Shown here one piece after another: positions 2,761 through 62,500 of a stretch of DNA of 64,000 nucleotides. Position 1 is the stretch's first letter. Every line of letters begins with the position of its first letter. The DNA is from a virus. Location: the UHGV virus genome UHGV-0020835; one strand, written 5' to 3'. The position numbers were made by a program, and so were the translations under genes. A model generated the notes under the pieces. It was not told where the DNA came from. It did no database searches and saw nothing but the letters and a program-made list of their open reading frames with translations.

Positions 2761-3576
2761 AAGCGGAAACTTAGCTCATCTAAAATCCTTATGAACCTTG
2801 CTAAAGGGTGTGTGGCTTAAAAAGCCATGCTAACGGATAGGACTCTATAGGAGTTGAGTCCGTGCTAAAATTCATCATAATACAAATATAAAAGAAAGGA
2901 GGATAATAATGACCTTAGAAGAATTTGATAAAATCACTAATGATTTTGTCCCCTTAAAAAGTACAGATGGACGGTTTGGTATTAACAAGTATGCTCAAAT
3001 CATAAACCTCAAAACAGGCCGACTTATTCATACTTATATCGGTGTAGATATGTATGAACACGTTGTTTTGTGTTACAAGGGTAAAAGATATAGGCAACGA
3101 GTTCATCGTCTTATGGCAGAAGCCTTTCTTAATAATTGTAAGGTTGTTGACCATAACGACACCATAAAAAACCATAATATTCTTTGGAATCTTAATCCAT
3201 CTACACGTTCTGAAAATATTGCCAAAGCCTATAAAGAAAATACTTATGTAAATCCACATAAAGGCCGTGGTATTTGGATTGTTGCGGAAAATAAAGAAAC
3301 TAAAGAAAAACACTTTTTTAAGAGTATGCGAGAATGTGAAAGATTTACTGGTGTAGACCGTCACAGAATCAAACATTTTCTCTTAAAGGAAAGAACTAAT
3401 CTTACCAACTTTAATTTTTATTATGATGAATGAAGTGTATCGACTATTTTCGGGGGAGTAACCCGGCAGCGGTAGTTTGTATCGCTGGTACGGCAAGAGA
3501 TTAGCACTTGCTGGAAGAGTAAGGACACCGAAAGGTGAAGATATAGTCAGTGCCGATGGTGACATCGGATAAAACG
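2761..3576 (+). mobile_element. group I self-splicing intron interrupting nrdD, carrying an HNH homing-endonuclease ORF
   Basis: Exon 1 ends in U. The intron segment GCTCAT (~2774) can pair with exon AUGGGU, giving the U.G at the splice site. The 3' region has the AAGATATAGTC P7-like motif and ends in G before the exon-2 TGT. The flanking exons reconstitute a conserved NrdD sequence. Confidence 0.7.
2909..3433 (+). CDS. HNH homing endonuclease (intron-encoded) with C-terminal NUMOD-like DNA-binding tail
   Basis: Strong RBS aaaggagg. HRLMAEAF...VDHNDTIKNHNILWNL HNH_3-like motif. AT-rich codon usage distinct from nrdD. Confidence 0.75.
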   Translation: MTLEEFDKITNDFVPLKSTDGRFGINKYAQIINLKTGRLIHTYIGVDMYEHVVLCYKGKRYRQRVHRLMAEAFLNNCKVVDHNDTIKNHNILWNLNPSTRSENIAKAYKENTYVNPHKGRGIWIVAENKETKEKHFFKSMRECERFTGVDRHRIKHFLLKERTNLTNFNFYYDE

Positions 3577-4557
3577 TGTAGAACCGCTAATGGCTGGGAC
3601 ATCAACGGTCTTGGCCAACAGAAAGATGGCAGAGGTAATATTTGTCCCGTAACTATTATTATGCCCACTTTGGCTATGGAGACCAAGGAGCGAACAGAAC
3701 TCGCTAAAAATCCAAAGGAAGCTATTATTGATAGTTTTATAGATATTCTCGACCAAAAAATCCACGAAGCCAAAGATATGCTTATTGAACGTTTTAACTG
3801 GATTTGTAGCCAATCTCCTGAAGCAGCCAAGTTCATGTATGAAAACAATGTAATGGCTGGATATGTGCCAAAAGAAGGCATCCGCTCTGCCCTAAAGCAT
3901 GGCACTCTTGCTATTGGCCAGATTGGTCTTGCCGAGACTCTACAAATCTTGATTGGTCAAGACCACACCACCTCAGAAGGCATGGAAATCGCCAGGCGAA
4001 TTGAGCAACTGTTTAAGGATAGATGTGCCGAGTTTAAAGAAAACTATCATCTAAACTTTGGTGTTTACTATACCCCAGCAGAAAATTTGTGCTATACCTC
4101 AATGCAGAAGTTTAAGATTAAGTATGGTATTATCCCTAATGTTTCAGATAAAGACTTCTTTACCAACTCTATCCATGTTCCTGTGTGGAAACACATGACT
4201 CCATTTGAGAAGATTGATATTGAGTCTCAGCTAACAGGCTATTCCAGTGCGGGCTGTATCACATATACAGAATTGGACAGCGGTGCCAAGAACAATCTTA
4301 AAGCCCTTGAAGCAATCGTCAACTATGCTATGGATAAGGATGTTCCTTACTTTGCTATTAACGTCCCCAATGACCAATGCATGAACTGTGGGTATTGCGA
4401 TGAAATGGATGATGATTGCCCTGAGTGCGGAAGTGAGGATATTAAGCGTCTACGGCGTGTGACAGGCTATCTAACCAATGATTATAAAACAGCATTTAAT
4501 GCCGGTAAACAACAAGAAGTTGAAATGAGAGTTAAACATCAGGAGTTCAATCAATGA
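3577..4557 (+). CDS. nrdD: anaerobic ribonucleotide reductase NrdD, exon 2 (glycyl-radical and Zn-ribbon C-terminus)
   Basis: CRTANGW..., YYTPAENLC, NLKALEAIVNYA, Zn ribbon CMNCGYC..CPECG, glycyl-radical motif RRVTGYL..FNAGKQQEV. The track ORF starts upstream at 3550 (GTG) inside the intron. Confidence 0.8.
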   Translation, partial: CRTANGWDINGLGQQKDGRGNICPVTIIMPTLAMETKERTELAKNPKEAIIDSFIDILDQKIHEAKDMLIERFNWICSQSPEAAKFMYENNVMAGYVPKEGIRSALKHGTLAIGQIGLAETLQILIGQDHTTSEGMEIARRIEQLFKDRCAEFKENYHLNFGVYYTPAENLCYTSMQKFKIKYGIIPNVSDKDFFTNSIHVPVWKHMTPFEKIDIESQLTGYSSAGCITYTELDSGAKNNLKALEAIVNYAMDKDVPYFAINVPNDQCMNCGYCDEMDDDCPECGSEDIKRLRRVTGYLTNDYKTAFNAGKQQEVEMRVKHQEFNQ

Positions 4558-5069
4558 ATTATGCTAATATAATTTCTTGTGACATTGCCAACGGAGAGGG
4601 AATCCGCACTTCCCTCTTCGTGTCTGGCTGTACTAATCACTGTCAAGGGTGTTTTAACGAAGAGTCCCAAGATTTCAACTATGGCCAACTCTACACCCCC
4701 GAGACAGAACAAACTATCCTTGAACAAATCTCTAAACCTTATGTTGCTGGTCTAAGTATCCTTGGAGGAGACCCCCTATGTCAAGACTCCGAGGGGAAGC
4801 TTCAATTACTACATCTAATTCAAAAAGTAACCAAACTACACAAAACAATTTGGCTATGGACAGGATTTATTTGGGAAGAAGCTATTAAAGAGCCTCTAAA
4901 TCGCAGTTTATTTGGTTGGTGCGACGTGGTAGTAGACGGGCCATTTATTGAAGCCCAAAAAGACCTAACTTTAGCTTTTAGAGGCTCGTCTAACCAACGT
5001 ATAATTGATACACAAGAGACCTTAAACCAAAATAAAATTATAATTTATAAAGGAGAGTTTCATGATTAG
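4554..5069 (+). CDS. nrdG: anaerobic RNR activating protein NrdG (radical SAM)
   Basis: CTNHCQGC radical-SAM cluster motif. ATGA overlap with the nrdD stop. Confidence 0.85.
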   Translation: MNYANIISCDIANGEGIRTSLFVSGCTNHCQGCFNEESQDFNYGQLYTPETEQTILEQISKPYVAGLSILGGDPLCQDSEGKLQLLHLIQKVTKLHKTIWLWTGFIWEEAIKEPLNRSLFGWCDVVVDGPFIEAQKDLTLAFRGSSNQRIIDTQETLNQNKIIIYKGEFHD

Positions 5070-5277
5070 CGAAATTACAGATATTAATGTGTATCTAGGC
5101 CAATTTTGTTTTGAACGACTACTATGCAACCTATCTATTGAGGCAGATATTATCCCACACAAGGGCGACTTTATCTTTTATAACGATGAAACCTATAAGG
5201 TCATGTATTGTATGTTAGACGTAGACCATGGTGAATATTCTGTCTTTGTGCGTGTAGCAATCGAGGAGGACTTTTGA
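5062..5277 (+). CDS. hypothetical protein
   Basis: 71-aa ORF overlapping nrdG end and next gene start. Confidence 0.4.
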   Translation: MISEITDINVYLGQFCFERLLCNLSIEADIIPHKGDFIFYNDETYKVMYCMLDVDHGEYSVFVRVAIEEDF

Positions 5278-5813
5278 TGGTTGAGCTTAAAAAGTGGCCA
5301 ACGGACGTAGATTGGGCTTGGTGCAAAGAATGTTGTCTTAATACAGTAGGCAAGACCTCTACCACACTTCCTACGGAAGAATGGAAGCGTAAGCTAATTG
5401 CGGCAGAACATAGCCCCCTAAGAGAACTATGGTTCGGCATTAAGATGACCATCCCTTATTATATTAGTGTCCATTTTGTTCGTCATCACATTGGATGTAA
5501 CCACTATGTTCAGTCCCAACGCAATGACCGACAAAACAAGTATGACCGTAATAAGGCCCCACAAGACGAACCGGTAAACCATGTTATGTCTATTAACGCT
5601 CAAGAGCTTGTGTTTATGGCTCATAAGCGTCTATGTAATCAAGCCTCTCCTGAGACTCGTGCTGTGATGCGAGAAATCGTAGATAAAGTTACTGAAAAAT
5701 GCCCTGAATTTAAGGACTTTCTTGTCCCGCTATGCGAGTATAGGGGCGGGGTCTGCACAGAATTTTACCCCTGTGGATATAATAAAACAATTAAGGAGAA
5801 AAGCAATGGTTGA
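5274..5813 (+). CDS. hypothetical protein, possibly ThyX-like (FAD-dependent thymidylate synthase-like)
   Basis: VRHHIGCNHYVQSQR resembles the ThyX RHR-X7-SxR(Y) signature with one extra residue. Nucleotide-metabolism context. Weak call. Confidence 0.3.
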   Translation: MMVELKKWPTDVDWAWCKECCLNTVGKTSTTLPTEEWKRKLIAAEHSPLRELWFGIKMTIPYYISVHFVRHHIGCNHYVQSQRNDRQNKYDRNKAPQDEPVNHVMSINAQELVFMAHKRLCNQASPETRAVMREIVDKVTEKCPEFKDFLVPLCEYRGGVCTEFYPCGYNKTIKEKSNG

Positions 5814-17975: not shown

Positions 17976-20900
17976 CTATCTGAATGCGATGTAGAATCGG
18001 ACAAGGCCTCTGTCGTTGATGCGGTTATAGCCGTTTCCACTGATTTTGTGGACAGCGAAGCCGGTTTCCGTCAGCTCCAGCACCGGCGCGCCGCCGCTGG
18101 TGACCGGCTTGCCGGGCAGGGCAAGACCGCCGTGGATGACGGGCCACGAGCCGGTCTGATAGCCCGTCATGGCGTCGGAGCTCACCACCAGCACCGCCCT
18201 TGGCTGGAACCCCAGGTCGATGTTCTGGGTCTCCGCGTCGTCGCCGGTGTAGCTGCCGGTCACCGTAGCTACCCGCTGATAATCCCACCACGGGAATGCA
18301 GACAATACACCGTCCTGCGGAACGTATCCCTGTACTCCGTCGCTTGTGATGTTCGTGCCAACGGCCAGCCCAGAAGTCTCAGCCACTCCCGCAAAGAGAA
18401 CATCGCAGTTTTGCCCAGCGGAAGCGGAAGTAAGAGCGATTGCGTCTTTGGATGAGATTACCCATCTTCCCGCAATCTGCCCGTTGTTGAATTCAAGCGT
18501 TGTAGCATAATAATTATTTGAATAGTTCCCGAAAAGAAACACACGTTTATTATCCAGCTGAGTACCAAATACAGGGTATCCACTGCTGAACACCGCAACA
18601 TCCATTTGTGTGCCTAGCGAAGCTGCTAGATTATCAATCTGAATTGGAAACACACTTGAAGAGAAGGCGATCAGCATCTCCCCGTTAAATGTAAATACTG
18701 CTGTGGAATGACTAGGCACAGATGCAAGCAACTGTGTTTTTGTCCCGGCTGAAATCGCGTTACCAGAGATAGTACAAGCATACCCATAGAAGATATCGCT
18801 GTTGATATACCCAACAAAGACATCCGTGCCGTTCACGCAGCAAAACGGCGTACAGCTGACCGATTCCAGCAACTGAGTTGCACCGAAAGATGCAGTTCCT
18901 GCCTCATCCACATTTACGATAGCGCAAAATAGTTTGCCCGCCGAATTTGTAGCGGCAACAAAAACTTTTTTGCCGGAGATAAGTTGTGCATCTAAAGTAC
19001 TGATATTGTAACTGCCAATATTCGAATCTGGTATGAGATTCTGAATTGTTCCCGGCGTAATTGTCGTTCCGGAAATGGAAAGATGTTGTACAGGAAGACC
19101 ACCCACGTTGTATAGGCCAAACACGACAAGAACACTTGTATTAGAAAAACGGATCAGCTTTACCTTGTCGTACTTACTTGAGCTTCCCCCAACGTTAAGT
19201 TGAACCTTTGCCCCCGGAGTAATTGTTGTTCCAGATATAGTACAGACCCAAGCAAAGTCTCCTTGATTAGAACGGGCTACAACAACAAACCTTAAGCTGT
19301 CCAATGCCACGATCCCGAAGGGTTGTGTGGCGTAGGAGGTGTCGCTGAATTCCTGGGTTGCAATAATAGACACTGGCTTTATGCTGTCGGTTACACGGAA
19401 CAGGGTAATTGTATAGTAGCCTGTAGACCTGTCTATCGACATAGTTACGCCTGTTTCTGCGCTCAACATACACGAAAGCATTGTATAACCATTAAGCAAC
19501 GTCGGTTCCACATTTTCCGCTCTAACTTTCTTCACAAGCTCCCCGTCCACCACATCCACCACGTCACCCACGGCGATGCTCTGGCCCGCTGCTGCGGGGT
19601 AGGTGCCACGGACGGCCTTACTGCGGTCTTTGAGGCCGTTGTCCACGTAGCTTTTCGGTGCCGCGTCGGTGTCAGCCTCCGGCGTGGGGAGATTCTGGAG
19701 CTTCTGGCCGCCCATGTCGAGATTTCCGGTCATCGTCCCGCCGGATTTGGGGAGCTTCGTGTCGGCATACGCCTTGATGCCGCCAGCCGTTGCCACGTCA
19801 CCGTTTGGATCGTATACAGATTTAAGCATATCACCAGACCCAGCCGCACTCAATGCGTCACTAACGGCTTTTTCACTCGGCACCTTGGTTGCACTTGTTC
19901 CAAGAGTTGTAGTGATATCGGATGTGGATACAGCGCCTACATCGCTTGCCCCTAATGTGACCACCCCTGTTTTGTTATTGATAGAAGTAACAGGTGCGAT
20001 CTGTAAGGCGGTATCTGCTTTGTCAAGTGATGCTTGCACATCGCCCGATAAATCGCTTTTAGCCACGCTTGACTTAAATGCCAAACTGCCAAGGTCACTA
20101 AACCACTTGGCGATTTTGCCGAATATAGTAGATAATTTTTCGCCACTTGAGATATTGGTTCGGCCTGATGCTTGGGAGAAAGTTGAAGCTGTATTGTCTA
20201 CATTGCCATATATGTGCTGCGCTCGGACTTCCTTCCACTGAGCGAGATACGTCCCCAATGACACCGCGCCGGTTTTGTATGGTGACAAGTCACCGTACAT
20301 TGTACTGCCGCCACGGTTAACTAATGTTCCTTCAATACCACCAGAAATACCCGTGAACGCAATTTGCGTTGCCGCGAGCCAACCATATTCTTGAGTAGGT
20401 TGAGCACGAAATGTTATTCGAAAACGTTTCCCAGTCCCGTTAACCTGTACCCCCATATACTGTGTGTTTACAACTTCATCGAAGGGGATATTATCCCGCT
20501 CAGCTACAAAAACGTATTGGTCAGCAACAGAATCATAAATTTCAATCTTATAATAACTACAATTTTGCTTGGCCGCGCGCCAATAAAATGACACGCCGTT
20601 TTCCCACTTTAACACCAAATTCGAATCAATCACAATAGAAACTTTAAGGTTTTTGACATCCATCAAAAGCGTATCATGGGCAGTTGATACATCTTTCCAC
20701 GCCCCGGTAGAATCACCTTCCGGTATTACACCTTGGGATCCTTTCAGTGCCTTATACCATCTAAAAACGCCGGATGCGGTTTGGTACATAACACGGGCAT
20801 TTTGCGGATAATTACTTGTTTCACTCCACAAACAAACAGTTTGTGCATGGCTTGGGCCAGCACCAAAGTTAATATATGTGCTGGATTTTCCATCAAATAA

Positions 20901-21986
20901 AGTATCAATTTCCTTGTCTGTAAAAGGCATAAGATACCCATCATAAAAAATCTGTGCGTTGCCGCCATTGTACCGGAGAAAACCCAGCGCATTTACTGCT
21001 GGGTTGATGGATACGGCATCTACATTATTGATAATACTATTAATGCCACCCCGTAAACGGACCGCTTGAATTTCATCATTAACACCCTGTTTACCATCTA
21101 ATTGTGTCTGTACCTTACTTGTTACGCCACCAAGATAACCCAACTCAGCAGATGTAACCGTACTCGCCTCGACCTTGCCACTACCATTAGACACCAAAGC
21201 ATGATTGGCAGTAAGATTATTGTCTGTAATGGTGCTTGCGCCACCCGTAATCGTATCTTGTTTGCCTCCGAGCGCATTAGTTAATGTAGTAACGTCACCC
21301 TTAAGTGTCGTAATATCAGACTGAGCCGTTTCCATATCAGAATCAAGCATAACAATATTATCTTTATTAGTATCAATTTGTTTCTTGGCCGAATCTGTAA
21401 AATCATTATGAGTACGCACATAAGTTTGCCCATCACTAACATCATCTTGAGTTAAAACAACTGCGCCAGTCTTGCCGTTAACTGACTTAACGGGAATATC
21501 ATTAGTAGTAATATAACCGCTGTCGTTTATAATTTCAGAGGTCTTGGTAGGAATATCTATGGTTTTTGCATAACCGCCCAAAGCATCGCTATTGACAAAA
21601 CCAGAATCGTTTTCAAGTTCACTGGTCTTTGTGGGGATTACAGTTGTGCTAGGTAAAGCGCCTACGTCATTAGCATTAAGAATAACACTACCGGTTTTGC
21701 CATTAACACTTGAAACGCCCGTTTCTGGTGTTTCTCCCCCACCCCCAGGAACAATAATAAAAGCCGCAGACATATTACCAAATGGCACAAACACTTGGTA
21801 AATAGAACCAGTAAGAGGTGTGCCGCCATAATATTTTACAGTATTATCTTTTCCGTTGATTGTCAAAACGCACGTTGAAGTAGCCACAGTTTTACACACA
21901 CCAGAATAAATTTTGGTTGTATTATCTTCTACTACATGATTAACTATAATTTCAATGGCATCTAAAATCTCGTTAGTAATATTCAA
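17976..21986 (-). CDS. large tail fibre protein (1336 aa) with Phage_fiber_2 repeats and a high-GC C-terminal (distal) domain
   Basis: Repeats DIPTKTSELENDSGF, LPKSGGTMTGNLDMGGQKL..AAPKSYVDNG. The last ~170 codons are ~60% GC. Confidence 0.65.
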   Translation of the reverse strand: MNITNEILDAIEIIVNHVVEDNTTKIYSGVCKTVATSTCVLTINGKDNTVKYYGGTPLTGSIYQVFVPFGNMSAAFIIVPGGGGETPETGVSSVNGKTGSVILNANDVGALPSTTVIPTKTSELENDSGFVNSDALGGYAKTIDIPTKTSEIINDSGYITTNDIPVKSVNGKTGAVVLTQDDVSDGQTYVRTHNDFTDSAKKQIDTNKDNIVMLDSDMETAQSDITTLKGDVTTLTNALGGKQDTITGGASTITDNNLTANHALVSNGSGKVEASTVTSAELGYLGGVTSKVQTQLDGKQGVNDEIQAVRLRGGINSIINNVDAVSINPAVNALGFLRYNGGNAQIFYDGYLMPFTDKEIDTLFDGKSSTYINFGAGPSHAQTVCLWSETSNYPQNARVMYQTASGVFRWYKALKGSQGVIPEGDSTGAWKDVSTAHDTLLMDVKNLKVSIVIDSNLVLKWENGVSFYWRAAKQNCSYYKIEIYDSVADQYVFVAERDNIPFDEVVNTQYMGVQVNGTGKRFRITFRAQPTQEYGWLAATQIAFTGISGGIEGTLVNRGGSTMYGDLSPYKTGAVSLGTYLAQWKEVRAQHIYGNVDNTASTFSQASGRTNISSGEKLSTIFGKIAKWFSDLGSLAFKSSVAKSDLSGDVQASLDKADTALQIAPVTSINNKTGVVTLGASDVGAVSTSDITTTLGTSATKVPSEKAVSDALSAAGSGDMLKSVYDPNGDVATAGGIKAYADTKLPKSGGTMTGNLDMGGQKLQNLPTPEADTDAAPKSYVDNGLKDRSKAVRGTYPAAAGQSIAVGDVVDVVDGELVKKVRAENVEPTLLNGYTMLSCMLSAETGVTMSIDRSTGYYTITLFRVTDSIKPVSIIATQEFSDTSYATQPFGIVALDSLRFVVVARSNQGDFAWVCTISGTTITPGAKVQLNVGGSSSKYDKVKLIRFSNTSVLVVFGLYNVGGLPVQHLSISGTTITPGTIQNLIPDSNIGSYNISTLDAQLISGKKVFVAATNSAGKLFCAIVNVDEAGTASFGATQLLESVSCTPFCCVNGTDVFVGYINSDIFYGYACTISGNAISAGTKTQLLASVPSHSTAVFTFNGEMLIAFSSSVFPIQIDNLAASLGTQMDVAVFSSGYPVFGTQLDNKRVFLFGNYSNNYYATTLEFNNGQIAGRWVISSKDAIALTSASAGQNCDVLFAGVAETSGLAVGTNITSDGVQGYVPQDGVLSAFPWWDYQRVATVTGSYTGDDAETQNIDLGFQPRAVLVVSSDAMTGYQTGSWPVIHGGLALPGKPVTSGGAPVLELTETGFAVHKISGNGYNRINDRGLVRFYIAFR

Positions 21987-42519: not shown

Positions 42520-42710
42520 TATTCAATTGTAATTAAATACTGATAGTTTGGTTTTAGACCACTTGTCAGAGATATTGGATCACCATTCCTTTCATACTTC
42601 GACATTATAAGTCAATGGATGCAAAGTACAGTGTCCTCCTTCCTTTCGGAAATTTAGTTAATGTCTCACCTTTCGGCTGACAAGATATTCAAACCGCATA
42701 GCGGGATGAA

Positions 42711-43889
42711 TCAAAGGTAATAGTTACGGCTCCAGGTCTTGCCGCTATCAGTATATACAGCCACATAGGCACTGGGCCGCGCTGCAACCCTAATTTTCTT
42801 GGAAAATGTATCAATTCCAACAATTGACCCGACACGGGTAAATACCCTGTCACCAACCTCAGTAATACCAATAGCCTTACTCTCAGGCCGATGTAAATGG
42901 CCACCATAGCCTTCATCAATATCGACATTATATAGATTGCTAAAATAATCCATAGTCGTGCTCAGGTCTTTATCTTCCCCATGACAGAACATGACATTAG
43001 TACCACGGATATCCTTAATGGCAATCTCCTGATAATTATTGATATTAAATCCAGCAATACCTTCATATCGTTGCTTCATATAGGCCACTACGAATTTGGT
43101 TAGATTTTCATCCTCAAATGTAGGCCGACTCTCAAGTAACCTCTGTGTGTCGTGATTACCACCAACTGTAATGACTTCAATATCTGTGCCCAGCTTCAAA
43201 TGCAAACGCAACAACCAACGACACATATCCTCAGAAAACCGAATAACAGTATCAATGACAGGCTCCCGCAGTTTCAGCAAGGAAGATGTGCGTAAAATAT
43301 TTTCAAAGCAATCCCCCAAAATAGCAACCTTACAATCCTTAAAGTCAATACAATCAGCCTCAATTTGGTCAATTAGATTATACAACCTGTGCCACATGAT
43401 GTTATAGTCGTACTTATTCACGGTTTCGCCATAGAGGCCGTATACTTCAAATGTAGAACCAGCATGAAAATCAGACAAGGTAATAAGCAAAGTAGAGTCC
43501 CCGTCAAGCCGATATGTATTCTCATACTCAGGTATCTGCAATGGCTCAAGACGGCCAATGGCCCTAATCAACTCTTCAGCAAATAGGTCGTTTCTGGCCT
43601 CTGCCCGTTGAATAGCATTATACTCAATATTGGTTGTGGACAGTTTAATTCTTTCAGCTTTGATTTGGCTCAATAGTTCTCTAAGCTCGTTAGACTTATC
43701 GCCCTCAACTTCTTGCCCTTCGACATTTTTCAAAAAGATACTAAACACCTTAGATGCTCTACGTAAATATTCTGAGCTGTATACGTCACGATAGTCTGGG
43801 CCAAGAACAATCTCAGCCCAGTCTTGATAATCAATTATTTTATCTTCAAGGTTCTGTGTCGCTAACCTCACTTTGTTTAGATACGTCAT
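42711..43889 (-). CDS. calcineurin-like metallophosphoesterase (Mre11/SbcD-like nuclease candidate)
   Basis: MPP motifs ITLSDFHAG, ILGDCFE, GGNHD, GHLHR. Confidence 0.65.
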   Translation of the reverse strand: MTYLNKVRLATQNLEDKIIDYQDWAEIVLGPDYRDVYSSEYLRRASKVFSIFLKNVEGQEVEGDKSNELRELLSQIKAERIKLSTTNIEYNAIQRAEARNDLFAEELIRAIGRLEPLQIPEYENTYRLDGDSTLLITLSDFHAGSTFEVYGLYGETVNKYDYNIMWHRLYNLIDQIEADCIDFKDCKVAILGDCFENILRTSSLLKLREPVIDTVIRFSEDMCRWLLRLHLKLGTDIEVITVGGNHDTQRLLESRPTFEDENLTKFVVAYMKQRYEGIAGFNINNYQEIAIKDIRGTNVMFCHGEDKDLSTTMDYFSNLYNVDIDEGYGGHLHRPESKAIGITEVGDRVFTRVGSIVGIDTFSKKIRVAARPSAYVAVYTDSGKTWSRNYYL

Positions 43890-44628
43890 CTACACTTTCC
43901 TCTTCCTGTTTATCAGCATATTTCCATTTATATCCGCCAGCAGTTTTTTGTTTACGAAACGGGTCGCAACAGTTGGAAATATAAACTTTATTAACACCAG
44001 TTACTTCCTCAGCCTTTGTCATAGACTTAAATTCGGCGATGTAATTGCCCTGTAAGTCCATCTGAATGACGGGCTGAGCGACAGTTCCTTTGCCAGAACT
44101 TCTTTCATTAGCCAAAATCTTATTTTGACGTTTGGTCTTTAACAATTCTTGTAATTCTTCCTGTGCCTTTTCACGCCGTTGCTCAACCATGTCTTCAACA
44201 ACATCGGCCAAATTTACAGCGTCGGCCCTAAATTCGCGCTCGTAATCACGGGCTGTAAGAACTCCTTTTTTAAGACGTTTTCTATATTTTTTAGTTACGC
44301 CTTGCATATTGATGTCGTTGATAAAATCATCCTCTGCGGCAAATAAAGGATAAACTCTAGGCGGAGCTGTATAAGTGGCATATTTGCCATTACCAATTGG
44401 TTGTGTCCAAGTCTTACCTTCTTCAAACCTTGTCGTAAAAGTTCCAAGTCCCGGTACTCTGCAACTACCGTTATAAAAAACCTCACGAATAATAACCTCT
44501 AAAAAAGCTGACCACCAATCAGCAGCGGTCTGTGTAGACGAACTATCTTTCCAACGACAAGCCTGTTTAAAAAATTCTTTATTTGTTACCATCATGGCGT
44601 TAGTAGTGCCTTTACTCGCCATTTTCAT
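43846..44628 (-). CDS. HU/IHF-like (DNABII) DNA-binding protein with C-terminal NUMOD1-like HTH
   Basis: VPGLGTFTTRFEEGKTW..PIGNGKYATYTAPPRVYPLF follows the HU arm pattern. C-terminus VTGVNKVYISNCCDPFRKQKTAGGYKWKY is NUMOD1-like. Confidence 0.5.
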   Translation of the reverse strand: MKMASKGTTNAMMVTNKEFFKQACRWKDSSSTQTAADWWSAFLEVIIREVFYNGSCRVPGLGTFTTRFEEGKTWTQPIGNGKYATYTAPPRVYPLFAAEDDFINDINMQGVTKKYRKRLKKGVLTARDYEREFRADAVNLADVVEDMVEQRREKAQEELQELLKTKRQNKILANERSSGKGTVAQPVIQMDLQGNYIAEFKSMTKAEEVTGVNKVYISNCCDPFRKQKTAGGYKWKYADKQEEESVDDVSKQSEVSDTEP

Positions 44629-45052
44629 CTTCTCCTATTTCGTTATTTTCCATTCCTTCATCTTCTTCATAAACCGCTGTTTCAGCTGTCCCAAATTTCA
44701 TCGGATTTTCCTCACCCAATTCAAAACGAGAAGCTTCTTTCAACACTTTGGCCCAGGCAGACCCAACTCTAAATACCGTCTTTTGAAACCCCGAAGTGTT
44801 TTGCGGTTTATTATATTGTAATTCCTTTGGGTTCCATGTTACCACATCTTCTTTAGGCATAATTTGTCTCCAACCAAAATAACCGATACGCCCAAAGGGA
44901 ACCTCAACATTCCCCAAAAGCGCCTCTTCTGTAATTTCAACGTAAAGGCTCATTACTGTTTTGATCATTTCAAGAGGAATACCACTACGCTTGAAAATTT
45001 GGTCTGCTATTTCACGATTAGTCAAAGTCGGTTTTTTTGCGTGAAATCCCAT
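44612..45052 (-). CDS. hypothetical protein
   Basis: 146-aa ORF between the large RNAP-like gene and the HU-like gene. Confidence 0.4.
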   Translation of the reverse strand: MGFHAKKPTLTNREIADQIFKRSGIPLEMIKTVMSLYVEITEEALLGNVEVPFGRIGYFGWRQIMPKEDVVTWNPKELQYNKPQNTSGFQKTVFRVGSAWAKVLKEASRFELGEENPMKFGTAETAVYEEDEGMENNEIGEDENGE

Positions 45053-45112
45053 ATTTTTGCTCCTTTTCCCTAATAATTATATTATAATGACGGGGGGTAG
45101 TTTCACAAACCC

Positions 45113-47695
45113 TTATGTATCAAGGGTTTCAGGCACTTTTGGCTTCACCTGTTGCCTATTTTCACGTTTTTTCTGAATGTCCATTGTATGAGCGCAATCA
45201 ACAGAGCAACATACTTGGTTATGCACATTTGGTTCAAATCTTTTACCGCAAATGGGACACACCTTACCGCTAACATTGGCTTTAAGATTGGCAACAATGA
45301 CGTCCCCAAAGCAAGCCCACAGCATCTTTTTATTGCTGGATTTTTTTACTGTGTACAAATAAGCGATAAGGCTATTAACAATAAAATCTATTGACTCGTT
45401 GCTAAACCCTATAATATCTTGAGCAATTGTACGATACTTATAAAGGTCATTCTCATTAATGTGTTCATTATCGCCATAATCAAATCGACGCTGATTTTTA
45501 ACCCACCAATTGTATCGTTCAATAATAAGCGAATTTTCACGAATGGTATAATCGACTTTTTTATTTGTCAGCATCGTCCAATCAAACTTACTGATTTTGC
45601 TATTATACCGAATCCGCGCATCAGGTATTTTAACAGAAATCCGATTCATTGTAGATTCGTTTGGTGGCTCAACTTGCGTAATAGGATCTTTATCTTTTGC
45701 GTACTGGAAAAAATTAGGCAATTTTGATTGAGTGTATTTTTTGATAATATTAGCCACTTCTTTAGGCGGCTCCGATTTCCAAAGTGTTTTCGCAAAATCA
45801 ATCACTTGGTTATTTTTCATGGTCAACCAAGCAATAACTTTAATCTGCTCTTCAGATAGCTTGCCACTATTAGCGTTTTTAACTTTAGAAATTGCATTAC
45901 TAATTGGCCCAATTGAACCACCCGTGTATGCCGTACTCACGCCCTCATATAAGCGATCTGCGTCTATAATACCACCTCTGGCTTTTTTCAAATCATAAGA
46001 CAAAGGCACAATACCCTGCATGTTTCGCTTGGCCACAGTTGTTAACGTTCTATCTTTTACAACTAATGAAATGTCACCATCAAAATCTTGCTGTAAAATT
46101 CGGCTAATCATATCATGGGCGCTAAAATACACACATTTTGTTCCACCAAACCATTTATCTGTTAATTCATTTCGTTTATTTATTCTGACAGCATGTTCTT
46201 GATACAAGTGAGGACTTCTTAAACAATCAAGTTCATCACCATCTTTGAATTGATTTGTATAAACTTCACCATTGGCTAACAAACCATCTGGCCTTTGTTC
46301 TCCCTTGAATAACCATTCGCAAAAAGCAAAGGGGTCAGGAGAAATAAACAAATATTTCCCATTAATTCTTAATCTGCCACCTTTTGCTTGCTTCACAAGA
46401 CTCTTCTTAGTCTGCTTTAATATTTCACAGCTATAAACATCTCTAAACAACTCAGGATAAATCATTAATGCTTCTTGTACAGCTGATTTATTTTTATTAT
46501 ATTCCGTCGCACCAAGTAGCCGCATAGTAGTCTGGTAATCTTTCCCAATACTTTCAATTTCTTCGACAGATTTAGAAATAAGTCTATCAATTTCATTGTC
46601 TTTCATATCGCCAAGAGATTGCAACATTTGGTAGTTTATTCTTGCATTAGAAATATAATCTTCTTCAACTTTACAACAACCAAAATAGCAATTATATGCT
46701 TTAAAGTTTGCTTTATAGCAAATCCAGCTTGGATAAAATTTATATAACTTAAACATTGATTTCGTTAAAATAAACTGAATATCATCCCCCAAAATATTCC
46801 AATCTTGTCCATAAATATCTGTTACAACCCAATCATCGGCAGGGCAGTATTCTTTTAACCACGCACGAAAATCAAAAAATGAAACAAGCCCCTTTATCCA
46901 AGGCCCCCGAATAATCTGCGTTTTAAATCCTGGTTTACAACACATCCCCCACCCATCTGTTTCGGCGATTATAGTTTCAGACACCTTGCGAGTAATACTA
47001 TAATCCGTATAATCAATAAAATCTGATTCAGCAGTTACCGGCATTTCAAAATCTTCAACAACAATACACCGGTCAATATCAAAATCTTCAATTCTGTCAG
47101 TGGCTGAAGCCATCAAACTTTTATAACTAAGCAATTTGTTTTCATTCATGCCACCCTGAGCGTTGATAGAGTCTATGGTCAAACCACACATTAACGTTCT
47201 TTGAACTTCTTCGTAATCTTTTTCTTTAACCGCCATAAAACGTTTAGTTCTAATCATTCCAGCGCCGCAAGAGTAAAAAATATAATGGTCGCCTTTGTAA
47301 TTAAAGCCATTATGAATGATACTGTTAAGAATTTCAAAGAAAAAAACATTAACAATAATAATTTTATCACTACGTTCATAAGGCTGAATGCCCAGATTTC
47401 TAGTAAGCTCAGAACAAAAAAGATTAATAATATTTTTATCTTTGATTGCCTCTGGATTTAATTCTCTTATGATATTATCTTCAAGAGACTTTTTTAATAA
47501 AATAACAAGTTTTTCTTTATATTTTTTAAGAACTCGATTCGCAGAAGAAATACGCCAATCTCGATTCAAACCTTCTTTTTCTCGCTTGCGCAAAGAATAA
47601 AGCTTAATCATTTTTTCATGTATGACCTGTTCTTCTGGTGTATAAAAAGCATCTGTTGCAACAGCAGGAATATAACAAAACTCGGTCAATGGCAC
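45113..47695 (-). CDS. large DFDGD-motif protein: candidate YonO-like single-subunit RNA polymerase (alternative: primase-polymerase)
   Basis: 860 aa, GTG start with RBS gaggtgg. LQQDFDGDISLVV carries the DxDGD catalytic signature. C-terminal Cys4 ribbon. First gene of the late operon with an HU-like gene downstream, as SPbeta yonO-yonN. Confidence 0.4.
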   Translation of the reverse strand: MPLTEFCYIPAVATDAFYTPEEQVIHEKMIKLYSLRKREKEGLNRDWRISSANRVLKKYKEKLVILLKKSLEDNIIRELNPEAIKDKNIINLFCSELTRNLGIQPYERSDKIIIVNVFFFEILNSIIHNGFNYKGDHYIFYSCGAGMIRTKRFMAVKEKDYEEVQRTLMCGLTIDSINAQGGMNENKLLSYKSLMASATDRIEDFDIDRCIVVEDFEMPVTAESDFIDYTDYSITRKVSETIIAETDGWGMCCKPGFKTQIIRGPWIKGLVSFFDFRAWLKEYCPADDWVVTDIYGQDWNILGDDIQFILTKSMFKLYKFYPSWICYKANFKAYNCYFGCCKVEEDYISNARINYQMLQSLGDMKDNEIDRLISKSVEEIESIGKDYQTTMRLLGATEYNKNKSAVQEALMIYPELFRDVYSCEILKQTKKSLVKQAKGGRLRINGKYLFISPDPFAFCEWLFKGEQRPDGLLANGEVYTNQFKDGDELDCLRSPHLYQEHAVRINKRNELTDKWFGGTKCVYFSAHDMISRILQQDFDGDISLVVKDRTLTTVAKRNMQGIVPLSYDLKKARGGIIDADRLYEGVSTAYTGGSIGPISNAISKVKNANSGKLSEEQIKVIAWLTMKNNQVIDFAKTLWKSEPPKEVANIIKKYTQSKLPNFFQYAKDKDPITQVEPPNESTMNRISVKIPDARIRYNSKISKFDWTMLTNKKVDYTIRENSLIIERYNWWVKNQRRFDYGDNEHINENDLYKYRTIAQDIIGFSNESIDFIVNSLIAYLYTVKKSSNKKMLWACFGDVIVANLKANVSGKVCPICGKRFEPNVHNQVCCSVDCAHTMDIQKKRENRQQVKPKVPETLDT

Positions 47696-47704
47696 ATTTC
47701 CACC

Positions 47705-47827
47705 TCATTCATTAATCCATTCAGTCCATTCTTCTAAAGTCGGTTCATATATATCATCCCAAACCTCTGGTTCAGTCTCTTGGCCTGTTTGGGTGTATAC
47801 TTCATAACTCATCTCTCGCCACACCAT
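47705..47827 (-). CDS. small acidic ORF (40 aa) at head of late operon
   Basis: Internal ATG with RBS. The track ORF 47705..47893 would begin upstream of the predicted TSS. Confidence 0.3.
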   Translation of the reverse strand: MVWREMSYEVYTQTGQETEPEVWDDIYEPTLEEWTEWINE

Positions 47828-47865
47828 AATCTCACCTACTCTCCTTGGCGATTTTTCTAACTTGA

Positions 47866-47894
47866 TTATACCATGTTTTGTGCAATTTGTCAAG
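47866..47894 (-). promoter_or_regulatory. sigma-A promoter (TTGACA-N17-TGgTATAAT) for the minus-strand late operon
   Basis: Minus strand: ttgacaaattgcaaaaacatggtataat. Confidence 0.55.
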
Positions 47895-47931: not shown

Positions 47932-47962
47932 TTGACAAACAAAATGTTTTGTGGTATAATAT
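47932..47962 (+). promoter_or_regulatory. consensus sigma-A promoter (TTGACA-N17-TGgTATAAT) with no ORF for ~500 nt downstream
   Basis: ttgacaaacaaaatgttttgtggtataat. Faces the minus-strand promoter; followed by direct repeats gtattcacatata x2. Confidence 0.5.
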
Positions 47963-48083
47963 AAAGTATATATATTATTATATTATATTTAGTATTCACA
48001 TATATAAGAGTATTCACATATACTTTAACATATATGCTTTATATTGTCAAGTATACTAAGTATATATAGAATTTTGATTTTAA

Positions 48084-48146: not shown

Positions 48147-48183
48147 TTATCGCAACCACAATCGCAACATCAATCGCAACCAC
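48147..48183. repeat. three direct repeats AATCGCAAC with 12-nt period (iteron/operator array)
   Basis: tatcgcaaccac aatcgcaacatc aatcgcaaccac. Confidence 0.5.
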
Positions 48184-48419
48184 CACATTAGGCGGATGCT
48201 TAGAGCAAATTTTGTCCAGACCTTTTTATCCTCTATCCAAGTCTTAACCACAAACTATGCCCCGGTCACGCTCATTTCTTTTCTCAACATAGATAAATAA
48301 TCAATCTTCCTCGCTCCAAAATCGATTTATTTTGCTTCGGTATATAAGTTCATGCCCACACCTTGTTGAAGTAAAAATAGAGCTGATTTTCTTGATAATT
48401 TATTTATGAAAAAAATACT

Positions 48420-48450
48420 TGACAAATCTTTCACGTCATGGTACAATCTC
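48420..48450 (+). promoter_or_regulatory. sigma-A promoter TTGACA-N17-TGgTACAAT for early plus-strand genes
   Basis: ttgacaaatctttcacgtcatggtacaat, 14 nt upstream of the gene start at 48465. Confidence 0.55.
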
Positions 48451-49188: not shown

Positions 49189-49809
49189 ATGCTAAACCCT
49201 AAATATTTAACACTAAGAAAACAAATACTAAAATACAGACTTGAATTAAAAATTAGAAAAGCACGAGAAAATGCCAAACTACGTGAAGAACGTAAGCGGA
49301 TGCGAGAACAAGAAAAACTACTGGAAGAAATTGCCAAAGAGCAAGAGCAGCTTGAAAAAGAACGTAAGTCTATGGATATTGCCTTTGCCAAGGCTCTAAC
49401 CAATGAAGAGCGTGAACTAATCAAGTCCCAAATGAATAACATTGACAAGCGCATGGACAACTTGAGATATCGCCGTGAGCACAATAATGCTGGCTGGTTG
49501 TATGTAATTAGTTCGCCCAGTTTGCCCGGTCTTTGCAAGGTGGGGTGCACACGTCGGCTTAATCCTACAATCAGAGTAAAAGAACTTAGTTCAAGTTCTC
49601 TACCTTACCCGTTCAGAACACATGGCTTTGTGTTTAGTGATAATTGTTTCGAGCTTGAAACACAAATGCACCATTATTTTGATGACAAGCGCGTGGCTCC
49701 TGACAGAGAGTTCTTTTACATCACGCCGCAAGAAGCGATTGATGTATTAAAGAATAAATTTAATCAAGAAGTCCATTTTGAAGAAGAAAATATGGAGGAT
49801 ATTGTATGA
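49189..49809 (+). CDS. DUF4041-like coiled coil + T5orf172 (GIY-YIG-like) domain protein
   Basis: C-terminus GWLYVISSPSLPGLCKVGCTRRLNPTIRVKELSS...REFFYI matches the T5orf172 pattern. Confidence 0.55.
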   Translation: MLNPKYLTLRKQILKYRLELKIRKARENAKLREERKRMREQEKLLEEIAKEQEQLEKERKSMDIAFAKALTNEERELIKSQMNNIDKRMDNLRYRREHNNAGWLYVISSPSLPGLCKVGCTRRLNPTIRVKELSSSSLPYPFRTHGFVFSDNCFELETQMHHYFDDKRVAPDREFFYITPQEAIDVLKNKFNQEVHFEEENMEDIV

Positions 49810-50195
49810 TTGACAATGTTAATCACCCGTCTCACTATAACCAAGGTGGCATTGAATGTATTGACGCTCTAAAGGCGGCAACGGTTGGTAAGACTGGAAT
49901 CGAAGCTGTTTGTGTAGCTAATGTAATTAAATATTGCTGGAGATATGAAAAAAAGAATGGCCTTGAAGATGTAAAGAAAGCACAATTTTACATTAACCGC
50001 CTAATTCAAGAGCTTGAAAAAAAGAAAGAAAATTGCTCCCTCTCTGACTCTAATAATGACGTTGGCGATTGTAACGAATGCGCCAACTTCGACATAAATG
50101 AATGTAGTGAATCTTGTCGCAATTGTAAAAACACTGCCGTTCCCGGTACTCCTGAATACAATAATCGCCCCTTACTATTTAAACGACCTGATTAA
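49806..50195 (+). CDS. DUF3310 family protein
   Basis: PSHYNQGGIECIDALKAA...VIKYCWRYEKKNGLEDVKKAQFYINRLI signature. Confidence 0.55.
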   Translation: MIDNVNHPSHYNQGGIECIDALKAATVGKTGIEAVCVANVIKYCWRYEKKNGLEDVKKAQFYINRLIQELEKKKENCSLSDSNNDVGDCNECANFDINECSESCRNCKNTAVPGTPEYNNRPLLFKRPD

Positions 50196-50255: not shown

Positions 50256-50690
50256 ATGGCACAGTTTAATAATAAAAAAATCAATAGATATTTGGATATG
50301 GCCAAAGAAGCCAGCACGCAATCTGATTTTACCAAACATAAGCTTGGAGCAGTAGCTATTTATCGAGGGAGTTTACTTGCTACAGGATATAATTCCTGTA
50401 AAACCTCGCCTGTACAAAAACATTATAACAAAGAAAGAAACTATCAAGTGGATGCCCCATTTAAAAATTCTAACTGTACCCATGCAGAAGTAGCTTGCTT
50501 GACTAAGTTGCGGTATCTTGACATTGATTTTAGTAAGGTTAAGCTCTATGTTTATCGTGAACATAAGAATGGGGTCAAGGCCCTTGCAAGGCCATGTCCA
50601 GCTTGCCAAAAGATGATTAAGGATATGGGGATTAAGGAAGTCTGGTTTACAACAGAGAATGGTTTCGGATATGAATGGATGGAGGATTAA
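50256..50690 (+). CDS. dCMP/cytidine deaminase family protein
   Basis: Zinc-binding motifs CTHAEVACL and PCPACQKMI. Confidence 0.75.
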   Translation: MAQFNNKKINRYLDMAKEASTQSDFTKHKLGAVAIYRGSLLATGYNSCKTSPVQKHYNKERNYQVDAPFKNSNCTHAEVACLTKLRYLDIDFSKVKLYVYREHKNGVKALARPCPACQKMIKDMGIKEVWFTTENGFGYEWMED

Positions 50691-60345: not shown

Positions 60346-60423
60346 GGCGCTGTAGTCCAATTGGTAGGAGACAAACGACTTAAAATCGTTACAGTGTGGA
60401 TTCGAATTCCATCAGCGCTACCA
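60346..60423 (+). tRNA. tRNA with anticodon UAA (Leu-type anticodon) but short variable arm; encoded CCA
   Basis: Acceptor GGCGCTG/CAGCGCT. D-loop AATTGGTA. Anticodon arm AACGA-CTTAAAA-TCGTT. T-arm GTGGA-TTCGAAT-TCCAT. ACCA end. Confidence 0.55.
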
Positions 60424-60740: not shown

Positions 60741-60816
60741 GCTGGATTAGCTCAGTTGGTAGAGCAGTTGATTTGTAATCAACCGGTCATCTGTTCAAAT
60801 CAGATATCCAGCTCCA
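60741..60816 (+). tRNA. tRNA-Thr (anticodon UGU)
   Basis: Canonical cloverleaf GCTGGAT-TA-GCTC-AGTTGGTA-GAGC-A-GTTGA-TTTGTAA-TCAAC-CGGTC-ATCTG-TTCAAAT-CAGAT-ATCCAGC-T-CCA. Confidence 0.85.
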
Positions 60817-61224: not shown

Positions 61225-61529
61225 TACCTGTTGCCGTAGGTTGGATGAATAAAGGTGAGATTATATGGCGGTGTGATGGAATTAGCAGACATGACAGACT
61301 CAAAATCTGTTGGCAGTAATGCCGTAAGGGAGCAAAGCCCTTCACCGCTACCAACTGTTATGGTTTGTTGACCATTGTTTGAACAACAGTAAAGCACAAG
61401 GGCCTGTGCAAAAGCATAATCAATGGCAGTTTTAATAGTAAAGCTGAAAACTATCTGGGGCTTACATTGTAAGCAAAGCTTCTCAAGGGTTGAGCCTATC
61501 AGCCCTATCCCAAAGCCATGTTTTTCCAT
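61224..61529 (-). CDS. hypothetical protein divergent from integrase (excisionase/regulator candidate)
   Basis: Start MEKHGFGIG preceded by aggagg and a 9-codon upstream mini-ORF. The track ORF extends to 61646 across the int promoter. Confidence 0.3.
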   Translation of the reverse strand: MEKHGFGIGLIGSTLEKLCLQCKPQIVFSFTIKTAIDYAFAQALVLYCCSNNGQQTITVGSGEGLCSLTALLPTDFESVMSANSITPPYNLTFIHPTYGNR

Positions 61530-61604
61530 GGCATGGTTTACCTCCTGTACTTCATAATATACTTCCTTTCTATCACATGGCACGAATTTGTTTAGAAAAA
61601 ACTC

Positions 61605-61633
61605 TTGACAAGTTCGTGCCGTTGTGGTATACT
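61605..61633 (+). promoter_or_regulatory. sigma-A promoter TTGACA-N17-TGgTATACT for integrase
   Basis: ttgacaagttcgtgccgttgtggtatact. Confidence 0.55.
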
Positions 61634-61660
61634 GAAGACAAATCAAAGGAGGTTAATAAA

Positions 61661-62500
61661 ATGATTGAGAGCTTTGTTAATTATATGAAGGCCGAGAAGA
61701 TGTCTGAGTATACTATGCGTGGCTATACCAACCATATCAATCAGATGCTCAAGACCATTAATAAGCCTGAACAGGATATTACCTACCTCGACTTGATTGA
61801 TTGGAAGGCCGGTATTGCTAATCAGGCCAGTGCAACGGTGGCTAATAAGGTTGCTGCTGTTCGGTCTTATTTCAAGTTCTTAGCCGATGCTGGTGTGGTT
61901 GAGGTTGACCCCAGCAAGAATCTCAAGCGCCCCAGCAACATCAAGAGTAAGGAAAAGCCCCGCATGACCGAGGAAGATGCAAGACAGCTTATCTCCTATG
62001 CTCGTACTCCTCGTGATAAGGCCATGTTCAGCTTCTTGCTCTCCACTGGGGTTCGTTTCTGTGAGATGGCCAGTATCACTATCGACCAGTACAAGAAGGC
62101 CAAGGAGAGCAATCGAGAAATTGAACTGCCCGTGACTAAGGGAGATAAGGGTGGTAAGGTTTATATCAACCGGTCTACTGAACAGGCGATTGAGCGTTAT
62201 CTACGTATGCGTGATGATGATTGCCCTTATCTGTTCGCCTCTTTCCAGAATCATAGACTTAGTGATAACAGCGTGTCTCAGACTATTAAATCTGCGGCTC
62301 GTAGGGCTGGATTGAAGTATTGGAATGAGCTTAGTTGCCATGGTCTGAGAGCTGGTTGTGCAACGATTATGAGCGATAAGGGCGTACCAGTGGCCACCAT
62401 TAGTAAGGTCTTACGTCATAGCTCGTTGGCTGTGACTACAAGATATATCAAGGCAAATCAGGATAACGTCAATAATGCTACGGCATTGATGGAATTTTAA
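61661..62500 (+). CDS. int: tyrosine recombinase / phage integrase
   Basis: RBS aaaggaggt. Catalytic residues in ARTPRDKAM..LSTGVRFCE, HGLRAG, LRHSSLAVTTRY (R..H.R..Y). N-terminal SAM-like core-binding domain. Confidence 0.8.
   Translation: MIESFVNYMKAEKMSEYTMRGYTNHINQMLKTINKPEQDITYLDLIDWKAGIANQASATVANKVAAVRSYFKFLADAGVVEVDPSKNLKRPSNIKSKEKPRMTEEDARQLISYARTPRDKAMFSFLLSTGVRFCEMASITIDQYKKAKESNREIELPVTKGDKGGKVYINRSTEQAIERYLRMRDDDCPYLFASFQNHRLSDNSVSQTIKSAARRAGLKYWNELSCHGLRAGCATIMSDKGVPVATISKVLRHSSLAVTTRYIKANQDNVNNATALMEF

Follow-up and report, generated by a model that had tools for sequence, protein, structure and literature searches.

A YonO-family RNA polymerase gene and paired HU-like genes ahead of the late gene block of a gut-metagenome phage

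Background

YonO of the Bacillus prophage SPbeta is a processive DNA-dependent RNA polymerase that responds little to pause signals, has no proofreading and is required for plaque formation, and 37 late SPbeta genes are silent when it is missing (Forrest et al. 2017, PMC5467207). YonO has no detectable homologue of the trigger loop or of most other domains of the multisubunit RNA polymerases, its catalytic triad is essential for RNA synthesis (the 3D>3N mutant is inactive), and its published transcription start (168 genome position 2225998) lies 3' of both yonO and yonN; neither its promoter nor any requirement for accessory factors was settled (PMC5467207). In SPbeta, yonO itself lies outside the YonO-dependent late operon. 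Here, we describe a gene of this family in a 64,000-nucleotide stretch of the virus genome UHGV-0020835 (hereafter the window), together with the two HU-like genes, the promoter and the candidate non-coding elements that surround it (Table 1). It is very likely, in our assessment, that the gene encodes a YonO-family enzyme that would be made early by the host and would then transcribe the block of late genes lying downstream on the same strand.

Table 1. Positions of the features of the polymerase locus and of its surroundings, in the numbering of the window
Feature	Position	Strand	Remarks
YonO-family single-chain two-barrel RNA polymerase, putatively DNA-dependent	45113..47695	-	860 aa; full-length YonO homology
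Beta-like barrel motif D247 ... R263-x-P-x-x-K268 (candidate)	46892..46957	-	By invariance and spacing
R493-S-P495 (candidate R-x-P)	46211..46219	-	R493 and P495 invariant
Catalytic metal-binding triad DFDGD (D537, D539, D541)	46073..46087	-	Aligns with DNDGD of YonO
C-terminal Cys4 zinc ribbon (likely), C813, C816, C830, C834	45194..45259	-	Invariant in 31 sequences
Sigma-A/sigma-70-type promoter, TTGACA, 17 nt, TG-n-TATAAT	47865..47893	-	12/12 consensus, extended -10
Conserved acidic 40-aa open reading frame, SPbeta yonP position	47705..47827	-	Called as a gene on contigs with the identical polymerase
9-bp hairpin over the polymerase stop codon, then UUUGUG	45107..45129	-	RNA folding prediction
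Conserved element ATAATTATTAGGGAAAA, core TAGGGRA	45064..45080	-	In the 60-bp gap between polymerase and HU genes
HU/DNABII-like protein 1, acidic tail	44612..45052	-	146 aa; directly 3' of the polymerase gene
HU/DNABII-like protein 2	43846..44628	-	260 aa; HU domain ~aa 16-137 and likely C-terminal NUMOD1; overlaps both neighbours
NUMOD1 DNA-binding module (likely)	43900..44112	-	~aa 173-243 of the 260-aa protein
Metallophosphoesterase-type exonuclease, SPbeta yonJ position	42711..43889	-	phrog_284 'exonuclease' E 5e-35; Pfam Metallophos_2 E 1.4e-5
Candidate structured non-coding RNA	~42520..42695	-	Between exonuclease and YonG-like genes
Sigma-A promoters of the control region	47893..47865; 47932..47960; 48419..48447	-; +; +	
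T5orf172/MUG113	49189..49809		Early region
DUF3310	49806..50195		Early region
dCMP deaminase	50256..50690		Early region
RecD-like helicase	7..1170		Early region
nrdD region, three open reading frames	1531..2820; 2909..3433; 3550..4557	+	174-aa frame between the nrdD halves
nrdG	4554..5069		3' of nrdD
ThyX fragment	5274..5813		3' of nrdD
Two tRNA genes	60346..60420; 60741..60813	+	
Tyrosine integrase	61490..62500	+	Pfam E 1e-27

Family membership of the polymerase

The open reading frame (ORF) begins with GTG behind the ribosome-binding site GAGGTGG, and its translation includes RILQQDFDGDISLVVKDR, which places the DFDGD pentapeptide reported in the earlier note at residues 537-541. When compared with SPbeta YonO by BLASTP, the protein aligned over 837 collinear residues at 41% identity (E=0) and its DFDGD was paired with the catalytic DNDGD of YonO; since the entire protein is homologous to YonO, the pentapeptide is no chance match. 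Among 50,697 phage records searched by tblastn, SPbeta yonO was matched at 40.7% identity and 96% coverage (E 4e-174), followed by other SPbeta-like phages, Clostridium phage D-1873 and Psychrobacillus phage Perkons and, more remotely, by Thomasclavelia and Enterocloster phage genes that carry the name 'RNA-dependent RNA polymerase' (RdRP). In PHROGs, the protein belongs to phrog_8308 (E 1e-225), the function of which is annotated as unknown, and its residues 473-604 weakly match an 'RdRP' phrog. The family is large, with at least 2490 clusters related to the window polymerase and at least 4638 related to YonO, and the identical protein is present on the metagenome contigs ERZ27287024 and ERR7738251. 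Judged by this homology, the gene is a clear YonO relative, as the earlier note had proposed, and thus a fresh member of a known enzyme family rather than an enzyme of a new kind; the family, unlike what the note had stated of the enzyme, has been characterised.

The Pfam family PF05183 (RdRP, QDE-1 family) was matched by 16 of 31 aligned relatives at E<=0.01, with a best value of 1.2e-15, while a Pfam search with the 860-aa protein returned one spurious zinc-finger match and nothing else, and the tie of the window polymerase to PF05183 is thus transitive and structural.

In eight of the relatives' loci and in phi3T-type phages, yonO is split by an insert of ~1 kb at one of three sites, namely ~aa 170-187, aa 535-537 (exactly the DxDGD codons) or aa 633-640. 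The insert of one of these loci, L009 (2573..3661), holds a free-standing HNH endonuclease ORF and has the look of a group I intron that carries a homing endonuclease. The polymerase gene of the window is uninterrupted.

Active site and predicted fold

Two-barrel polymerases share eight universally invariant residues, which in Qde1 are D709, R738, K743, R962, P964 and D1007/1009/1011 (Ruprich-Robert and Thuriaux, PMC2919709). In an alignment of 31 sequences, including one that is 96% identical to SPbeta YonO, D537, D539, G540 and D541 of the window polymerase are invariant, and so are D247, R263, K268, R493 and P495, which together with the three catalytic aspartates would, if equivalent, make up the eight. 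D247, R263 and K268 are candidate equivalents of Qde1 D709, R738 and K743, i.e. of the fourth metal-binding aspartate and the basic residues that bind nucleoside triphosphates; the spacing from R to K is 5, as in Qde1 (PMC2919709), and the region is strand-rich and modelled with a predicted local distance difference test score (pLDDT) of ~89-95. Likewise, R493-S-P495 is a candidate counterpart of the R-x-P of the beta-prime-like barrel (Qde1 R962/P964; Rpb1 R446/P448), with 44 residues from R493 to D537 compared with 45 from R962 to D1007 in Qde1 (PMC2919709). Near the C-terminus, four invariant cysteines look like a zinc ribbon, and the region gave weak profile matches to the zinc-ribbon proteins L37e and TiaS.

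The structure was predicted with AlphaFold2 (AF2). A first model, based on an alignment of 14 sequences, had a pLDDT of ~25 around DFDGD and gave significant Foldseek matches only to plant RDR2 structures (best E 1e-10); it was superseded by the model from the 31-sequence alignment, to which the pLDDT values above refer. The structural matches of the 860-aa protein were headed by maize RDR2 (597 residues aligned, score 15.8) and QDE-1 (15.1), followed by P74 gp62 (12.7), the P23-45 gp96 RNA polymerase (11.1) and the virion RNA polymerase of the crAss-like phage phi14:2 (10.9), and then, with scores of 8-10, by RPA1, AR9 and M. tuberculosis beta-prime, vaccinia rpo147 and Rpb1 as well as isolated or designed double-psi beta-barrels. 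Phage proteins named RdRP also matched the model in a Foldseek search of BFVD, with a template modelling (TM) score of 0.70. As modelled, the protein thus has two double-psi beta-barrels in one chain and resembles cellular RNA polymerases at their active centre, and the Foldseek and AlphaFold comparison that had been suggested in the earlier note comes out in favour of a polymerase. Sequence searches of the PDB, whether started from the single sequence or from two family profiles, matched no polymerase, and the bridge to QDE-1 and RDR2 is therefore structural only.

Compared with the described two-barrel enzymes, the window polymerase is most like SPbeta YonO, with which it shares collinearity over the full length (860 vs 839 aa), the DxDGD triad and the C-terminal Cys4 ribbon. 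It differs from the multisubunit polymerases, in which the barrels belong to beta-prime/Rpb1 and beta/Rpb2, in being a single chain about four times smaller. From QDE-1 and RDR2 (PF05183) it is set apart by an identity of only 14-16%, by the preference of the tested relative for DNA and by an expected part in phage late transcription instead of RNA silencing. The phage polymerases phi14:2 gp66, P23-45 gp96 and P74 gp62, to which no sequence-level similarity was detected, are either much larger or packaged in the virion and injected for early genes (the PDB entry titles name phi14:2 gp66 as virion-packaged and P23-45 gp96 as a tape measure protein), unlike the window polymerase, which, as in SPbeta, is encoded where the late module begins and is preceded by a host-type promoter.

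Promoter and gene order of the locus

The sigma-A-type promoter upstream of the polymerase gene, which the earlier note had placed one nucleotide off, is, in our scan of the whole window, the sole perfect consensus promoter on the minus strand, and it probably drives both the 40-aa ORF and the polymerase gene. In eight relatives, promoters that score 10-12/12, mostly with the TG, are found 165-220 nt 5' of yonO, and the majority of the relatives checked have a similar promoter at this place. Promoters close to the consensus (>=11/12) are unevenly distributed, with eight on the plus strand of the 16-kb early region, whereas the late block of 39 kb has only two on its sense strand, each of them inside a gene; by our own binomial estimate, at least 8 of 10 sites would fall in the early region under an even spread with a probability of roughly 1e-3. 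This skew fits host transcription of the early and polymerase genes and non-host transcription of the late genes. By tblastn, the 40-aa ORF lies directly 5' of yonO in most relatives at 54-97% identity, and 700-900 nt upstream of it in three others; no sequence similarity to YonP was found.

The genes that follow the polymerase on the minus strand encode, in this order, two small HU-like proteins, the exonuclease, a YonG-like protein (23% identity to YonG, E 2e-7), the terminase large subunit (a weak match), the portal (E 1e-44), virion proteins, the tape measure (E 3e-63) and a tail fibre-like protein, and this co-oriented block extends from ~47.9 kb to 6.3 kb. The earlier note had the polymerase heading a late operon: the gene does precede the co-oriented structural block, but by analogy with SPbeta yonO it probably lies ahead of the operon and outside it.

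The HU-like gene reported in the earlier note at 43846..44628 is HU-like, but it is not alone, as the 146-aa protein encoded between it and the polymerase has DNABII character as well, and by its profile matches more clearly so. In the PDB, the 146-aa protein as a single sequence matched nothing but HU (E 0.16) and IHF-alpha (E 0.26), and in Pfam it matched Bac_DNA_binding at E 0.002 (18.6 bits, under the cut-off of 22.4), whereas a profile of 11 orthologues matched African swine fever virus (ASFV) pA104R (E 1.6e-11), HU (E 1.7e-9), SPO1 TF1 (E 7e-6) and IHF, with the match to HU/IHF spanning positions 1-105. For the 260-aa protein, the single sequence gave HU-CCDC81 (E 8e-4) and Bac_DNA_binding (E 0.0018) in Pfam, under the cut-offs, the family profile matched HU structures over positions 4-100 (E 3.5e-4), and homologues that are ~50% identical carry precomputed PF00216 and PF14908 assignments. 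Its C-terminal third is a likely NUMOD1, a DNA-binding module of homing endonucleases: PF07453 was matched at E 5.4e-4 (20.6 bits, under the cut-off of 22.8) and phrog_20162 over aa 173-243 at E 1.2e-9, PF07453 is precomputed for many of the long-form homologues, and this part of the protein resembles the C-termini of GIY-YIG intron endonucleases. The extension is confined to the subclade of the window.

A pair of HU-like genes is found 3' of yonO in essentially all relatives for which downstream sequence is available, whereas SPbeta, Perkons and D-1873 have a single HU gene at this place and TR-TP1 has one that is IHF-like; the linkage of polymerase and DNABII genes is thus conserved across lineages whose polymerases are 22-41% identical. 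The profiles of both proteins match HU structures, that of the first also TF1, pA104R and IHF, and in this they are like YonN, TF1 and pA104R, from which they differ in being far more divergent, paired and longer-armed and in having acidic or NUMOD1-like C-terminal extensions.

The locus as a whole resembles that of SPbeta in having a host-type promoter and a small ORF 5' of the polymerase gene and, 3' of it, genes for an HU-like protein, an exonuclease, a YonG-like protein and a terminase. The order of small ORF, yonO, HU, exonuclease and terminase is common to SPbeta, Perkons, D-1873, TR-TP1 and gut phage contigs of ~90 kb, the exonuclease gene is syntenic in all relatives and in TR-TP1, and the gene order of the window is repeated on ~15 IMG/VR contigs (52-98 kb) and on several contigs of metagenome-assembled genomes (MAGs), including relatives with a polymerase just 45-55% identical. 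Differences from SPbeta include the host and the phage itself (temperate phage contigs of ~90 kb from gut metagenomes compared with 134 kb), the two divergent HU-like genes, one of them with a NUMOD1-like extension, in place of the one canonical HU (YonN), and the overlap of HU and exonuclease genes where SPbeta has a non-coding region of 1.7 kb. In pairwise comparisons of the neighbouring proteins with SPbeta proteins, no similarity was found except for YonO and YonG.

Candidate late start site and non-coding elements

The first HU gene overlaps the second by 17 nt and the end of the second overlaps the start of the exonuclease gene by 44 nt, and because of these overlaps the 60-bp gap at 45053..45112 is the only non-coding space from the polymerase to the exonuclease gene. 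At the upstream edge of this gap, the hairpin that covers the stop codon of the polymerase may be a weak terminator that separates this gene from those downstream. It is insignificant against shuffled sequence (z -0.6); hairpins followed by GTTTGAR are found at the polymerase end in the relatives' loci L030, L024 and L010, and a stem-loop is annotated after SPbeta yonO.

The same gap holds the TAGGGRA element, which we put forward as a candidate, hypothetical YonO-type late start site or RNA element. Its core is kept 5' of the first HU gene in every relative of the window clade, to as low as ~51% polymerase identity, and the sequence on either side of it diverges; it is distinct from the ribosome-binding site in L009, L010 and L024, and it is the single top position-weight-matrix site in each locus. 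Across the window, WWTAGGGRA is not enriched (5 matches vs 5.5 expected), and we therefore claim one positionally conserved site and no multi-copy promoter. A related TAAGGGAG is found 100-150 nt after yonO in SPbeta (CATAAGGGAGACAG), D-1873 (CTCTAAGGGAGACAG) and Perkons. TA(A)GGGRR occurs within 300 nt past the yonO stop in 13 of 18 lineages, SPbeta, Perkons and D-1873 among them, compared with ~4% of background windows, a figure that overstates the case given the relatedness of the lineages and the post hoc choice of the pattern. The SPbeta primer-extension primers were placed at 9282-9524 of the SPbeta record (L001), with the published start between them, and the TTTATGAGGG found there bears a weak, post hoc resemblance to the motif.

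Further downstream, the candidate structured RNA between the exonuclease and YonG-like genes consists of blocks that are 87-94% identical in L030, L010 and L024, with variable insertions between them, compared with 43-82% for the flanking proteins, and RNAalifold predicted 43 pairs from four sequences, 8 of them with compensatory changes. No Rfam family matched it beyond chance level (in E-value mode), and at the gathering threshold nothing was matched in the region of the polymerase locus. Its position recalls the unannotated non-coding RNA after the YonO start in SPbeta. In SPbeta, the 1.7-kb non-coding stretch between yonN and yonK, after the YonO start, contains the Rfam DUF3800-VIII RNA motif (L001 10381..10446; 47.5 bits, above gathering).

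Control region, phage type and other features

Between 47864 and 48448, the window contains an AT-rich control region of ~600 bp with divergent perfect or near-perfect sigma-A promoters. The polymerase promoter is a 51-nt inverted copy of the early plus-strand promoter at 48398..48448, with which it shares the -35 context ATACTTGACAA. The region also holds repeats, namely three copies of ATACTTGACAA, two of AGTATTCACATATA (47991..48022) and three of ATCGCAACCAC at 12-nt spacing (48149..48183), which may be operators.

The integrase and tRNA genes suggest a temperate phage, and the integrase together with the anaerobic ribonucleotide reductase genes points to a temperate phage of an anaerobe. 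The reductase gene nrdD is divided over two ORFs that match positions 2-266 and 263-562 of Pfam NRDD, and the 174-aa ORF between them looks like an intron with an endonuclease. Local GC is 0.51 at 18001..20000 compared with ~0.40 elsewhere, and this stretch lies inside the ORF 17976..21986 on the minus strand, a 1336-aa virion or tail fibre-like gene. A megablast of 20 kb against the phage collection returned no near relative, a scan of GTDB genomes with the single protein gave no match, and an alignment-based scan of GTDB found only MAG contigs from bins of mutually inconsistent taxonomy.

Proposed role of the polymerase and alternatives

By homology with SPbeta, host sigma-A RNA polymerase would use the promoter at 47865..47893 to express the 40-aa ORF and the polymerase as early products. 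In the polymerase, D537, D539 and D541 would hold the catalytic Mg2+, with D247, R263, K268, R493 and P495 probably completing the universal two-barrel active site. The enzyme would work without a sigma factor, low response to pause signals and high processivity being expected by analogy with SPbeta YonO, and it would start at a phage-specific site 3' of its own gene and then transcribe the genes for packaging, head, tail and lysis, a block of ~39 kb. Its conserved companions, the pair of HU/DNABII-like proteins, probably bend or coat the phage DNA and thereby aid late transcription or packaging.

Several points weigh against this scheme. The window polymerase falls below every Pfam threshold, without a match to PF05183 even at E<=1, and the fold rests on prediction since the PDB copy that was searched holds no YonO structure. 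The five active-site residues other than the DFDGD triad are equated with those of Qde1 and Rpb by invariance and spacing only. The YonO start in SPbeta follows the HU gene and precedes a long non-coding RNA, and because the HU and exonuclease genes overlap here, the late start of the window cannot be at the same relative place. Finally, read-through from the strong sigma-A promoter upstream could add to late transcription.

We also consider, as an unlikely extension of the proposed scheme, that the cassette is a complete minimal phage transcription system in which the DNABII pair, one of the two with a putatively sequence-reading NUMOD1 module in this clade, would supply the initiation or promoter specificity that YonO lacks at the TAGGGRA element (45064..45080). 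The linkage of the genes and the motif are both conserved across lineages, which would be compatible with such a role, and the SPbeta start determined by primer extension lies elsewhere than the motif, which counts against it.

Carried further, the read-through argument would have an active polymerase and a late block transcribed mainly by host RNA polymerase from 47865..47893, leaving the phage enzyme with a narrower task such as the synthesis of one non-coding RNA or of replication primers. The genes from 47.9 kb to 6.3 kb are indeed all co-oriented with short gaps or overlaps, only a weak hairpin and no strong intrinsic terminator follows the polymerase gene, and no YonO promoter has been independently validated so far. 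In SPbeta, however, loss of yonO silences the 37 late genes even though these are co-oriented with it and downstream of it (PMC5467207), transcription over 41 kb by the host polymerase without antitermination is unlikely, and the non-coding elements that are conserved 3' of yonO and 3' of the exonuclease gene point to specific signals, and we regard this reading as improbable.

More improbable still is an RNA-dependent enzyme that, in the manner of QDE-1 and RDR2, would act on phage or host RNA instead of transcribing DNA. The top structural matches are the eukaryotic RdRPs RDR2 and QDE-1, and relatives match the Pfam 'RdRP' family PF05183 and are named 'RNA-dependent RNA polymerase' in Perkons, TR-TP1 and PMBT24, but these names stem from the Pfam family name and not from experiments. 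SPbeta YonO, the sole tested member of the bacterial and phage clade, strongly prefers DNA templates and is needed for late transcription (PMC5467207), and the conserved place before the late module suits a transcriptase. The primase-polymerase of the archaeo-eukaryotic primase (AEP) type, or other replication enzyme with a coincidental DFDGD, that the earlier note had kept as its main alternative, with the remark that the window lacks a canonical DNA polymerase, is refuted in practice, as neither a primase or AEP fold among the structural matches nor an AEP profile match was found.

Significance

YonO-type enzymes are the simplest known relatives of the cellular RNA polymerases, and only one of them has been studied so far. 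The same cassette of polymerase and HU-like genes heads the late module of a family of ~90-kb phages from gut metagenomes, and the locus thus provides comparative material on the form of the YonO promoter and on the need for accessory factors, with three handles for such work: the non-coding motif with its conserved position, the pairing of the DNABII genes and the candidate structured RNA. If the DNABII proteins did supply promoter specificity, this would answer the question raised in 2017 of how the sigma-less YonO finds its promoter. Relatives that are now listed as 'hypothetical' or 'RNA-dependent RNA polymerase' would be better annotated as YonO-like DNA-directed RNA polymerases.

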